Shown here piece after piece: positions 24,001 through 27,000 of a DNA stretch of 64,000 bases. Location: the NCBI RefSeq assembly GCF_041886205.1, contig NZ_CP169029.1. The stretch is one strand, 5' to 3'. The position numbers were made by a program. Numbering within the stretch: position 1 is the stretch's first letter; each line of letters begins with the position of its first letter. The DNA comes from Escherichia coli (lineage in GTDB: Bacteria > Pseudomonadota > Gammaproteobacteria > Enterobacterales > Enterobacteriaceae).

Positions 24001-27000
24001 AATATGGATATCTTCTCCATAAACAGAGCAACCACCGTCGGGGCCATATCCCCCCTGAACAATACCGTTATTATTCAAAGTGATTTGATTTCCAGAAATA
24101 GCATCTCCCCCTTGTTTTATTCCATATCCTCCAGATATCATGTTGTCGTTAGTAATGAAAAGATTACTACCATTAATACCATCACCACCGTTTACGCCAT
24201 TACCGCCCAATATTCCTCCGGAATTATGCACTGTAATATTGCTACCGGTTACACCGGAACCACCTGTCCCACCTACATCATCACCTCCGTATATACTTCT
24301 GTAATTATCAACTATAATATCATCCCCGCTTAACCCTGCACCTCCGCTACTTCCTGAGCCACCAAGACCATTACCCCCATATACATTTCGGTAATTTCTT
24401 ATCAATATTTCGTTTCCACTGACAGCAACTCCACCATTATATCCATCTCCCCCCCAAATACTACCATTATTATTTAGTGTGAAGTTTACACCGTAGACAC
24501 CTGCTCCACCAATTGATGTATTGCTTGTTCCTCCTTTGATGTTAACACTACTTTCAACAGATAATATATTTTCATTATAATTGGTTTCAGGAGGCACGCT
24601 GATGTTTAGCGCCTCGTTTCCATCAGTACCTGTAATACTCCTGATTATGCTTTCAGAGATTCCATTACCATTGAGTTGTATTGTTTGTGCACCAGAAAAA
24701 TGAGATTGTACAGAATAAAGTACACTGGCCAGAAATAGTGAAATTCGCATTTTCTTATTCATACTATTTTTCTTTAGTGATGCATATTTTTGTCAACCAT
24801 GCAGTACATTATTTCATTGATATTGAACAGATTAGAAATAATATTTCCATTAAAAACAAGTGTCATTATACCTTACCACTTTCTCCTAGTTATTTACCGT
24901 ATCCAGACGTCTCGTGATACTTCCTGTATTTATTATAGAGTATATATATACACTAAGTTTAAATCATGGAGACAACAACCTTTTTTATATAAATTATTCC
25001 TAATGTTCTTGCCCCCTTATTTCCAGACAGGGGTTGTATCTTAAGTTAACATTACCCGCTGACGTCGATATTCTCGCGGAGAGCGATAACCCAACGCACT
25101 ATGCGGATGGTTTTCATTGTAATGCTCGATCGCCACTGCAAGGTTATGCAATGCCGTTCTTACATTCGGTTTCGGCATGAACGCGATGTAGTCTTCCTTC
25201 ATCGTTTTCACGAACCGTTCTGCCATTCCATTACTCTGAGGGCTACTGATTGCCGTTGTGCAGGGCTTCAGATTCAGCTCTCTGGCGAACTGCCGTGTTT
25301 CATGCGCTCTGTACGCTTAACCGTTATCTGTCAGCCACTGGATGGACTGTTCCGGTACTTTATCGCCAAAGCGTTTTTCTATCGCTCCTAACATCACATC
25401 CTGCACTGTCGCTTTATCGTAACTCCGAACCACACGGCAAACAATTCTGAGAGTTAGAGCGAAACAGCAAATGTTGCTGTATAAAAAATAGTCTTAGCGT
25501 GGGAAAATTTCCGAATTCCAAGCTGCCCCCTACGCTGGAAACGCCGAAATTTCCGATACAGCGAATTTGTTGATCTTTGAAGCATGTTTGGCAGGTTTTA
25601 ACGTGTACGTTTATGGTGCAGTAAGTGAGAATTTATTCGTACCAGCTATGGATACGTTACGGGCAGTGATTTTTCGCGCCAGGCAGCTATTTCTTTGCTG
25701 TCCGGTTAACGGCGGTCTTACGTACAGTGATCTTACCCAGCAATAGTGGACACGCGGCTAAGTGAGTAAACTCTCAGTCAGAGGTGACTCACATGACAAA
25801 AACAGTATCAACCAGTAAAAAACCCCGTAAACAGCATTCGCCTGAATTTCGCAGTGAAGCCCTGAAGCTTGCTGAACGCATCGGTGTTACTGCCGCAGCC
25901 CGTGAACTCAGCCTGTATGAATCACAACTCTACAACTGGCGCAGTAAACAGCAAAATCAGCAGACGTCTTCTGAACGTGAACTGGAGATGTCTACCGAGA
26001 TTGCACGTCTCAAACGCCAGCTGGCAGAACGGGATGAAGAGCTGGCTATCCTCCAAAAGGCCGCGACATACTTCGCGAAGCGCCTGAAATGAAGTATGTC
26101 TTTATTGAAAAACATCAGGCTGAGTTCAGCATCAAAGCAATGTGCCGCGTGCTCCGGGTGGCCCGCAGCGGCTGGTATACGTGGTGTCAGCGGCGGACAA
26201 GGATAAGCACGCGTCAGCAGTTCCGCCAACACTGCGACAGCGTTGTCCTCGCGGCTTTTACCCGGTCAAAACAGCGTTACGGTGCCCCACGCCTGACGGA
26301 TGAACTGCGTGCTCAGGGTTACCCCTTTAACGTAAAAACCGTGGCGGCAAGCCTGCGCCGTCAGGGACTGAGGGCAAAGGCCTCCCGGAAGTTCAGCCCG
26401 GTCAGCTACCGCGCAAACGGCCTGCCTGTGTCAGAAAATCTGTTGGAGCAGGATTTTTACGCCAGTGGCCCGAACCAGAAGTGGGCAGGAGACATCACGT
26501 ACTTACGTACAGATGAAGGCTGGCTGTATCTGGCAGTGGTCATTGACCTGTGGTCACGTGCCGTTATTGGCTGGTCAATGTCGCCACGCATGACGGCGCA
26601 ACTGGCCTGCGATGCCCTGCAGATGGCGCTGTGGCGGCGTAAGAGGCCCCGGAACGTTATCGTTCACACGGACCGTGGAGGCCAGTACTGTTCAGCAGAT
26701 TATCAGGCGCAACTGAAGCGGCATAATCTGCGTGGAAGTATGAGCGCAAAAGGTTGCTGCTACGATAATGCCTGCGTGGAAAGCTTCTTTCATTCGCTGA
26801 AAGTGGAATGTATCCATGGAGAACGCTTTAGCAGCCGGGAAATAATGCGGGCAACGGTGTTTAATTATATCGAGTGTGATTACAATCGCTGGCGTCGTCA
26901 CAGTGCCTGTGGCGGTCTCAGCCCGGAACAATTTGAAAACCATAATCTCGCTTAGGGCCGTGTCCACATTACGTGGGTAGGATCAATTTTCCTGATGACC

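Follow-up and report, generated by a model that had tools for sequence, protein, structure and literature searches.

The argW island and the elements within it

The DNA analysed here (the window) is a stretch of 64,000 nucleotides from Escherichia coli contig NZ_CP169029.1 (assembly GCF_041886205.1). Part of it is a genomic island at a tRNA-Arg gene, in which an IS3-type insertion sequence (IS) lies between an autotransporter gene and an integrase gene. The features concerned are listed below in the order of their coordinates.

21265-24762, minus strand: AIDA-I-type autotransporter, intact, 1165 aa; the cargo gene to the left of the scar
24763-25727, no strand: left flank, made up of non-coding DNA and a dead IS3-family transposase fragment, 100% identical to REL606/BL21
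about 25041-25433, minus strand: the dead IS3-family transposase fragment within the left flank
25725-25727, no strand: left flanking trinucleotide CAG, the proposed insertion point of canonical IS3
25728-26985, plus strand: hybrid IS3, 1258 bp, both ends present, orfA and orfB open
25728-25766, plus strand: left terminal inverted repeat (canonical IS3 IRL), 39 nt
25793-26092, plus strand: orfA, ATG start, open; its protein is identical to canonical IS3 InsE
26053-26059, plus strand: CCAAAAG slippery stretch, a putative -1 programmed frameshift site fusing orfA and orfB
26089-26955, plus strand: orfB, the catalytic part of the transposase, open, 288 aa
26947-26985, plus strand: right terminal inverted repeat (O26-type), 39 nt
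26952-27107, minus strand: truncated PapB/FocB-family regulator ORF, 51 aa, of which codons 1-41 (26986-27107) are genuine; RefSeq WP_000160236.1, 'PapB/FocB family'
26986-26988, no strand: right flanking trinucleotide ATT, the old junction of an O26-type element with the papB-like fragment
28371-29588, minus strand: P4-type tyrosine integrase of the island (NF007246 integrase domain, E=4.8e-86)
29737-29811, minus strand: tRNA-Arg(CCT), argW, the attachment site of the island, with the integrase immediately adjoining

The tyrosine integrase beside a tRNA gene identifies the locus as a tRNA-associated island with a P4-type integrase. Its site is that of the argW-dsdCXA island, with tRNA-Arg(CCT) by yfdC/mlaA on one side and dsdA/emrKY/evgAS on the other. 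This region is referred to as a variable E. coli genomic island in the passage of PMC7545054 that cites Moritz & Welch (2006). Its content is highly variable between strains, and the version present in the window carries csc sucrose genes, the AIDA-type autotransporter and the P4-type integrase, without CPS-53/IntS or ipuAB.

The undisrupted partner of the left flank, which the sequence-only reading had proposed to look for in related genomes, was found in several of them. In REL606 the flank is 100% identical over 965 nt and runs on without interruption past the trinucleotide (…TACAG/GTTGCCGAGC…, i.e. CAG/GTTGCC…), and the same CAG/GTTGCCGAGC continuation is present inside the argW islands of AR_0061 and LR882057. 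The autotransporter module plus 104 nt past CAG, with no IS3 involved, occurs in the argW/csc-dsdA islands of five strains (AR_0061, MDK9L1, CUWW06, LHM10-1 and LR882057), and cscB-dsdA adjoins the left side of the window module, as in these five. DNA beyond the CAG site is kept in AR_0061, CUWW06, LHM10-1 and LR882057 over at least 104 nt and up to ~20 kb. The earlier suggestion of island decay agrees with what the comparison revealed, as every related argW island has a different IS scar in this interval.

A full-length IS3 copy without target duplication

The same reading had described an intact IS3 at 25725-26988. An element is indeed present there, but this span includes the two flanking trinucleotides, the IS itself being limited to 25728-26985. 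Its length of 1258 bp and its ~39-bp imperfect repeats beginning TG…CA are those of the IS3 group, as is the overlapping arrangement of orfA and orfB with a slippery stretch (OrfAB), in which we take CCAAAAG to be the -1 frameshift motif of IS3. The left and right 39-nt repeats are 74% complementary, and each IS3 end was found once in a search of the window. A near-identical copy in strain wlxctx60 is labelled in RefSeq as 'IS3-like element IS3 family transposase, programmed frameshift'. The description as intact is right for the open reading frames and the ends, but not for the element as a whole, in which two different IS3-type elements are combined (see below).

The lack of a 3-bp duplication was confirmed, with CAG on the left and ATT on the right. 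Misplacement of the ends, which could have concealed a duplication, was assayed by moving either IS3 end from -6 to +6 nt and seeking duplications of 3-5 nt. No flanking duplication appeared at any shift, and the only matches (GAT, GATC and ATC) all lay inside the element's own TGATC…GATCA termini. Canonical IS3 copies in related islands, used as controls, showed 3-bp duplications (CTT/CTT in AH25 and AAG/AAG in M37H), so the ends are correctly placed and a duplication would be expected after a simple insertion. Decay of a former duplication by mutation is also excluded by the 100% identity of the left flank to REL606. Therefore, the window copy shows neither the 3-bp nor the occasional 4-bp direct duplication of a simple IS3 insertion.

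The window copy is a mosaic of two IS3-type elements

When the window copy was compared with canonical IS3 (AH25 copy), 19 of the 1258 positions differed (~98.6% nucleotide identity overall), with a bimodal distribution along the element: there was one difference from K-12 IS3A in 25728-26820, whereas identity was ~89% in 26825-26985. Seventeen differences fall in 26825-26967, and all 17 match an IS3-like element of O26:H11; in O26:H11 11368 the last 161 nt of the IS run on into the right flank without a break, both at 100% identity. To the left of 26821, in contrast, ~20% of positions disagree between that element and the window. The IS therefore contains a single parental switch, between 26820 and 26825, which divides it as follows.

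25728-26820, plus strand: canonical-IS3-derived segment, equal to K-12 IS3A and AH25 IS3 but for one SNP, at 26416, that is private to the window copy
26821-26824, plus strand: crossover interval GAAC, between the last canonical-specific base (26820) and the first O26-type-specific base (26825)
26825-26985, plus strand: segment whose source is the diverged O26-type IS3-like element; together with the flank of that element it forms one identical, unbroken sequence

Canonical K-12 IS3 (IS3 family, IS3 group) shares with the window copy its 1258 bp, left end, orfA, orfB frame and frameshift stretch, whereas the last 161 nt, with the right inverted repeat and the codons of four OrfB residues among them, come from another IS3-like lineage, and the target duplication of canonical insertions is lacking. 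The four residues are the substitutions H246R, I248S, W273A and K285H; a further change, H110N, is private to the window copy. The O26-type right repeat has mismatches to the canonical one at 26957, 26959 and 26967, the terminal 18 nt being the same.

The hybrid arrangement was found in 2 of 5426 complete E. coli genomes, wlxctx60 and 6EVA. The exact hybrid sequence occurs at this locus only, with a 100% match only in wlxctx60, so that it shows no sign of having transposed, as far as its sequence distribution can tell. In 6EVA the switch point lies further to the left, within 26776-26801. Both crossovers (that of the window and wlxctx60, and that of 6EVA) fall within 26776-26824, in the best-conserved part of the two elements, where a perfect block of 26 nt occupies 26776-26801 and the longest one, of 42 nt, lies beside the crossovers at 26832-26873.

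Two details of these crossovers speak against the recombination scheme proposed below. The window crossover occupies only 4 nt between two mismatches, outside any long perfect block, a position that calls for heteroduplex repair or secondary conversion. The different switch point of 6EVA implies either two events or a later modification of the tract.

The O26-type element and the truncation of the papB-like gene

The second parent, annotated in RefSeq as 'IS3 family transposase, frameshifted', is a diverged element of 1233 bp with about 80% identity to IS3, whose surviving copies are frameshifted. It was detected at at least 99% identity in 232 records, and the right flank in 241 complete genomes, the two being adjacent among the matches listed; the junction between them is common to about 230-240 complete E. 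coli genomes, O26:H11 included. The window IS shares with the element of O26:H11 11368 and the ~230 other genomes the right 161 nt, the junction with the papB-like fragment and the orientation relative to it, but it is only ~78-80% identical over the rest and lacks the 12- and 11-nt deletions and the broken reading frame. ATT was sought at the left side of the O26-type element, as a sign that a simple insertion of that element had truncated papB, and was absent, the bases there being GTTGATC in O26 and AH25 and ATGGTAG in XJ5.2; therefore, that element has no duplication either.

The minus-strand ORF with a good Shine-Dalgarno sequence, into which the IS had been thought to cut, is real, with GGAG 6 nt upstream of its ATG, but the gene was not cut by this IS3. 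It had already been truncated at this very nucleotide, either by the O26-type element or beside it, and as this junction is common to about 230-240 complete genomes, the truncation predates the IS3 of the window. The last 10 codons and the stop of the ORF read into the right end of the IS. The ORF matched Pfam PapB PF03333 (E=1.2e-10, 41.7 bits with a cut-off of 29.4) at profile positions 19-57 of 91, the domain being incomplete and its remainder replaced by IS-encoded residues. The 41 genuine residues showed 47.5% identity to residues 23-62 of what we take to be the PapB sequence.

A BLAST search with the 40-aa fragment, put forward earlier as a check, did not lead to an intact orthologue: the 12 proteins returned measured 41-67 aa, each of them a truncated or fused variant. 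With the same presumed PapB query, tblastn did not find the C-terminal remainder of papB either in the window or in the related loci compared with it. In comparison with the PapB/FocB fimbrial regulators (PF03333), the ORF shares part of the domain but lacks its C-terminal third, and there is no adjacent fimbrial operon. By its sequence, then, the papB-like fragment is an inert remnant without the C-terminal part of the PapB domain, and the 51-aa protein WP_000160236.1 in RefSeq corresponds to a gene fragment fused to IS sequence.

Proposed origin by recombination between two resident elements

The above results point to the IS3 of the window as the product of homologous recombination between two direct, non-identical IS3-type elements in the argW island, a reading to which we assign a probability of about 85%. 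The process would have begun with the arrangement still observed in O26-type genomes, in which the old diverged element already abutted the papB-like 5' fragment at …GGATCA/ATTTTCC. A canonical IS3 would then have inserted further to the left, in the same orientation, after …TACGTACAG, a site in non-coding DNA downstream of the autotransporter module, presumably with duplication of CAG. The resulting two-element intermediate would carry the junction GGGTAGGATCA-CAG-GTTGCCGAGC plus that of the O26-type element with the papB-like fragment. Finally, as the mosaic shows, the two elements recombined where they resemble each other most, along ~100 nt close to the 3' end of orfB and probably in a RecA-dependent manner, which left one hybrid IS and deleted all the DNA between them.

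This scheme accounts for the mismatch between CAG and ATT, because one parent contributed the left junction of the hybrid and the second parent its right junction. It also accounts for the loss of DNA, since the O26-type element has the same orientation as the window IS3 and recombination between direct repeats gives a deletion. DNA between the two sites is present in relatives and absent from the window, as it should be around a hybrid IS; in O26 and AH25 several kb are retained to the left of the O26-type element. With respect to the parents, the right flank with its O26-type element exists in more than 200 genomes, whereas the left flank was found only uninterrupted, without the canonical parent at that place. 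The intermediate itself (right end of canonical IS3 followed by CAGGTTGCC) was not represented among 5426 complete E. coli genomes, in which no place covers the junction, and the pattern ACGTGGGTAGGATCA-N0-6-GTTGCCGAGCGCAAAATTTG had no match in a metagenome contig collection; hence the insertion of canonical IS3 at the CAG site stays a conjectural step. Also, the uninterrupted left flank and the O26-type junction with the papB-like fragment do not occur together in any one genome, so the deleted interval could be rebuilt only as a composite of LR882057 and AH25, which gives an estimated deletion of ~24.6 kb, up to ~25 kb.

In the sequence-only reading the absence of a duplication marked an IS3-mediated deletion or recombination junction. 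The mosaic and the continuous left flank support recombination with deletion, but as a homologous exchange and not as one made by transposase. In E. coli mutation-accumulation lines, homologous deletions between IS copies arise at 4.5e-5 per genome per generation (Lee et al. 2016, PMC5009759), although the recombination events recorded there involved mostly IS1 and IS5, with 0 of 98 between IS3 copies. As in those deletions, direct IS copies in the window would have collapsed into one, with loss of the interval and mismatched flanks; unlike them, the partners are only ~80% identical overall, so that the product is visibly chimeric.

Alternative explanations

A deletion adjacent to the resident element and made by transposase, in which its left end moved intramolecularly to CAG while its body acquired canonical IS3 sequence in a separate gene conversion from another IS3 copy, appears unlikely. 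One-ended rearrangements do happen at this locus, as seen from the left end of the O26-type element, which has no duplication of its own, and further IS3 copies are found at four places in wlxctx60, the closest relative. However, two independent events would be required when a single one is enough. As a canonical base is already present at 25740, the start of the conversion tract would have to lie in the first 12 nt of the element and its end at 26820, leaving almost no homology on the left side. Transposase would also be needed in trans, the O26-type element being a pseudogene that is frameshifted and has lost DNA at two internal places.

An exchange between loci is very unlikely. According to it, an IS3 at the CAG site in the ssb-ykgR-GH31 island (REL606, BL21, M37H) recombined with the element at argW, and the autotransporter module would have reached argW by inversion or translocation, not by local deletion. 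The B strains and M37H do carry this module, together with a left flank that is 100% identical, elsewhere in the chromosome, and M37H has a canonical IS3 on the right of the CAG site at a distance of 4.7 kb. Against this, the module and the 104 nt past CAG are already at argW/csc-dsdA in the five strains without IS3, and cscB-dsdA lies to the left of the window module as in them.

Simple insertion of an IS3 isoform whose duplication was never made, was later lost or was hidden by misplaced ends has in its favour the full length of the element and nothing else beyond its general possibility. For practical purposes it is refuted: no end offset gives a duplication, whereas the copies in AH25 and M37H have theirs; the flanks are 99.8-100% identical to relatives, which makes three substitutions in three adjacent bases implausible; they are contiguous in no genome except one derived IS-less variant that is also missing 1 nt; and in more than 200 genomes a different element shares the right junction. 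Mis-assembly, in which a repeat caused two IS3-bounded contigs to be joined wrongly, is hardly credible even though IS copies are classic sites of mis-assembly, since the same junctions and mosaic arrangement are present in wlxctx60 and 6EVA, independently sequenced complete genomes from Japan and Singapore, mis-joining identical repeats cannot create a switch point inside the IS, and just this element is cleanly deleted in a close relative.

Other events at the boundary with the papB-like fragment

Further rearrangements were detected at the right boundary of the hybrid IS. Two loci (L008 and L009) show a clean loss of 1259 nt, removing the hybrid IS between CA microhomologies, and in another two (L010 and L011) an inverted canonical IS3 has its left end abutting TTTTCC. 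The IS-less junction of L008 (TACA/ATTTTCC) was considered as the ancestral empty site and rejected, because it lacks the G of CAG, because an insertion there would not give the observed flanks, and because the right end of the O26-type element would have to land twice at the same nucleotide.

Four kinds of event thus lie within a few nt of the boundary: the O26-type element, the two hybrid variants, the inverted IS3 and the clean loss. That the boundary is a hot spot, at which IS3-type elements repeatedly target the end of the resident copy, recombine and excise almost precisely, is a tentative idea that we consider rather improbable. Should these events share a mechanism, with insertion targeted to IS ends and excision driven by the transposase or the host, this locus would preserve a record of how IS3 carries out both in nature.

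Implications

The hybrid IS3 is an ordinary scar of island decay, produced by an event of a well-known kind, and its significance beyond annotation is small. As an example, it illustrates that an IS copy without target duplication can be dated and explained through a parental switch inside the IS, here with the breakpoint resolved to 4 nt. For this lineage it means that the argW island has lost up to ~25 kb between the autotransporter and the integrase, both of which are still intact. Comparative genomic work on the argW/dsdA hot spot can use the hybrid IS, which only 2 of 5426 complete genomes carry, as a convenient marker of lineage.

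The hybrid IS3, its ends and flanks

The IS3 copy and its internal features are located as follows:

25728-26985: IS3, 1258 bp, bounded by 39-nt imperfect inverted repeats
25793-26092: orfA, open frame
26089-26955: orfB, open frame, overlapping orfA in ATGA
26053-26059: CCAAAAG stretch

Each IS3 end was found only once in a search of the window. The bases just outside the element are CAG on the left (25725-25727) and ATT on the right, and shifting either boundary by up to 6 nt in search of a 3-5-nt repeat revealed matches solely to GAT, GATC and ATC within the termini of the IS3 itself. 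Canonical IS3 copies from related islands, used as controls, have CTT/CTT (AH25) and AAG/AAG (M37H) flanks, so that the absence of a duplication is real and not an effect of end placement. Thus, the unmatched flanks described in the sequence-only reading were confirmed, and no offset of the true ends within 6 nt restores a 3-4-bp duplication. Nor can a former duplication credibly have decayed, as the flanks are 99.8-100% identical to those of other genomes. The IS3A copy of K-12 MG1655 (locus L005, 1730-1745), annotated as 1255 bp, lacks the first three left-end bases (TGA) and is therefore a poor reference for the left terminus.

Mosaic structure of the element

The window IS3 was aligned with canonical IS3 (represented by K-12 IS3A and by the AH25 copy) and with its IS3-like counterpart at the same place in O26:H11 11368. 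The latter, referred to as the O26-type element, is 1233 bp long, with 79.7% overall identity to IS3 and a disrupted reading frame (RefSeq labels it 'frameshifted'). From 25728 to 26820 the window sequence is that of canonical IS3, with a private SNP at 26416 as the sole exception; over that stretch about 20% of positions in the O26-type element disagree with the window, and it carries deletions of 12 and 11 nt. The remaining 17 differences from canonical IS3 all lie within 26825-26967, every one of them showing the O26-type base, and from 26822 the window and O26:H11 are 100% identical across the IS end into the flank. Therefore, the right 161 nt of the IS and its junction with papB', the truncated PapB/FocB-family ORF on its right, were inherited together from an O26-type element. 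The earlier description of an intact IS3 holds for the open frames and for the presence of both ends, but the element is a mosaic of two and not an IS3 of a single type. It has the length, repeats and ORFs of IS3 isoforms, lacks their target duplication and has a bimodal identity profile; judged from its sequence, it can be taken as an IS3 isoform both by annotation and by its way of working.

This arrangement was present in only 2 of 5426 complete genomes, wlxctx60 (from bear faeces in Japan) and 6EVA (from human faeces in Singapore), the exact hybrid sequence being found in wlxctx60 only. In the window and wlxctx60 the switch between parents falls at 26821-26824. 6EVA (locus L012, 3001-3286, corresponding to window 26776-26824) shares the flanks and the hybrid but carries O26-type bases at 26802, 26817 and 26820, which places its switch inside a 26-nt perfect block (26776-26801), 20-45 nt further left. 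Both switch points adjoin the longest perfect block (42 nt, 26832-26873) and fall in the best-conserved part of the two parents. The difference may reflect two independent recombinations in sister lineages, a single event with an unrepaired heteroduplex that then segregated, or a short tract converted later from another IS3 copy.

Another patchwork IS3 was detected beside ompC in SCEC020001 (locus L013, ~3030-4286). In window numbering, canonical segments (25728-25866 and 26084-26801) alternate with O26-like ones (25867-26083 and from 26802 on), showing that exchange between IS3 and the diverged lineage recurs elsewhere in E. coli.

The right flank and papB'

The ORF directly to the right of IS3 (26952-27107, minus strand) has 51 codons and a GGAG Shine-Dalgarno sequence. 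Codons 1-41 match positions 19-57 of the 91-position Pfam PapB profile (E=1.2e-10) and show 47.5% identity to PapB residues 23-62; the last ten codons are IS right-end sequence. RefSeq annotates the fragment as protein WP_000160236.1. The right flank was found in 241 of the 5426 complete genomes and the O26-type element, at 99% identity or above, in 232 records; the two are adjacent among the matches listed. This shared junction indicates that the papB-like gene had been truncated before canonical IS3 sequence arrived. The small gene is a 5' fragment, as had been proposed, but it was not canonical IS3 that cut it.

Between papB' and the integrase gene (27108-28370) there are 1.26 kb of AT-rich sequence without ORFs of 60 codons or more, and no papI-like divergent gene was seen there.

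The left neighbours of the O26-type element vary, being ATGGTAG in XJ5.2 (locus L006, 8600-8650) and GTTGATC in O26:H11 (L002, 4740-4780) and AH25 (L007, 10500-10540). Neither matches the right-hand ATT, so that the O26-type element, too, has been a deletion end-point; XJ5.2 lacks ~11 kb kept in LR882057 and AH25.

The left flank and the missing DNA

The 965 nt of left flank also occur in REL606 and BL21, where they run on uninterrupted as …TACGTACAG/GTTGCCGAGC… (the slash marks the junction). Within the argW island itself, the autotransporter module is present in AR_0061, MDK9L1, CUWW06, LHM10-1 and LR882057. Sequences read directly from AR_0061 and LR882057 show the same continuation for 104 nt past CAG, up to an ISEc31-like element; CUWW06 matches AR_0061 over this stretch, and CUWW06 and LHM10-1 are annotated with the same layout. 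These uninterrupted relatives indicate that the left end of the window IS is a true insertion point in once-continuous DNA, and that the DNA to its right is gone.

LR882057 retains ~20 kb beyond the CAG site, with IS copies, a FadR/GntR regulator, an alcohol dehydrogenase, an MFS transporter, Mu-transposase and ATPase remnants and a TerB-N/ATPase/DEAD-helicase set. Its final 5.1 kb overlap AH25, which continues to the O26-type element. The LR882057 and AH25 composite gives ~24.6 kb from CAG to the O26-type left end, an upper-range estimate that is not a measurement of this lineage.

The ISEc31-like element, of the IS3 family, lies 104 nt right of CAG in all five argW relatives, a second anchor for deletions in this interval:

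L003, 6068-7324: ISEc31-like element
L015, ~8340-9560: ISEc31-like element
L016, ~7220-8290: ISEc31-like element
L017, 4921-6185: ISEc31-like element

On its far side there is a truncated O26-type IS in AR_0061 and MDK9L1, ISEc52 and intS' in LHM10-1, and common IS66/IS4 fragments in CUWW06 and LR882057.

The module (IS30 copy, RelE and phosphatase fragments, autotransporter, dead transposase and left flank) occurs in two chromosomal contexts. In the relatives of the window it lies in the argW island, whereas in B strains (REL606, L001, 3.78 Mb) and M37H (L014) it adjoins ssb-ykgR-GH31-MFS, with conjugative-transfer gene remnants nearby.

The argW island and its other scars

The window represents the E. 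coli argW hot spot, with these landmarks:

8830-9588: EmrA/EmrK adaptor profile match, positions 1-247 of 334
9590-10558: IS5 transposase
28371-29588: P4-type integrase
29737-29811: tRNA-Arg(CCT)
right of tRNA-Arg(CCT): yfdC and mlaA

Leftward from the integrase come the island, the csc sucrose genes, dsdA, emrY, an IS5-split emrK and evgA. Directly left of IS3 there are ~300 nt of non-coding sequence, the remnant of a dead IS3-family transposase and an intact gene for an AIDA-type autotransporter of 1165 aa. The csc genes (14314-19397, between dsdA and the island) encode a LacI-type regulator, an invertase-family hydrolase, a fructokinase and an oligosaccharide MFS permease; in K-12 this place is occupied by dsdC-dsdX. 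emrK is apparently split by the IS5-family element (8830-11059), a 143-codon ORF following the transposase gene directly before emrY. The argW-dsdA region is cited as a known variable island (Moritz and Welch, 2006, as cited in PMC7545054).

In each related argW island a different IS scar separates the autotransporter module from the integrase, which fits the island decay suggested from the sequence. Homology to wlxctx60, 6EVA, AR_0061 and others starts abruptly at 19830, within the end of an IS30 copy of which ~150 nt are left (~19830-19970). Between cscB and this position wlxctx60 has 5.6 kb extra (Zn-ribbon proteins, fragments of an S16 protease and of IS911, and the bulk of IS30), so that the window does not come from wlxctx60 itself. 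The 19830 boundary marks a further deletion bounded by an IS, on the opposite side of the module.

A very close relative (99.96% identical) without the hybrid IS3 was found in GCA_045005515.2 (contig DBBUUK020000029.1) and the Logan assembly of SRR23866968 (loci L008, 6100-6140, and L009; window 25727-26985). Its flanks are joined as …CTTACGTACA/ATTTTCC… by a 1259-nt deletion between CA microhomologies, giving papB' a new 12-codon tail (protein P0001). This looks like a near-precise IS excision; the sole IS excision in Lee et al. (2016; PMC5009759) likewise concerned an IS3 copy. In two ENA metagenome contigs (L010, ~2929-3028; L011, ~2768-2819; window 26986/26987), which end inside the IS, an inverted canonical IS3 left end abuts papB' as …GGGTAAGATCA/TTTTCC, one nucleotide from the window junction. 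A separate insertion of IS3 into a TTT target, a few nucleotides from the resident IS end, could account for this.

Origin of the junction

The two parents, canonical IS3 and the O26-type element, are in direct orientation, and a single hybrid IS with such parents and a lost interval is the signature of homologous recombination between IS copies. Canonical IS3 would have inserted first at the CAG site, a primary insertion deduced from the junction itself, and the two copies would then have recombined into one hybrid IS, its left junction coming from one parent and its right junction from the other. No two-element intermediate was detected in complete E. coli genomes (n=5426) or metagenome contigs.

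The main rival, intramolecular transposition of the left end of the resident element plus gene conversion, has a low probability, since it requires two events and a conversion tract beginning within 12 nt of the IS end. Inter-locus exchange is unlikely, as the autotransporter module is already present in argW islands without this IS3. An assembly artefact is excluded by the same structure in two independent complete genomes.

The deletion or recombination junction proposed from the sequence was thus corroborated by the mosaic IS, the continuous left flank elsewhere and the missing DNA. Recombination of IS copies is a well-documented source of E. coli deletions; in mutation-accumulation lines, 98 such events were counted, a rate of 4.5e-5 per genome and generation (Lee et al., 2016; PMC5009759). 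The initial finding is correct and now explained, but ordinary: the event belongs to a textbook class, deletions in which two IS copies recombine and a hybrid IS remains.
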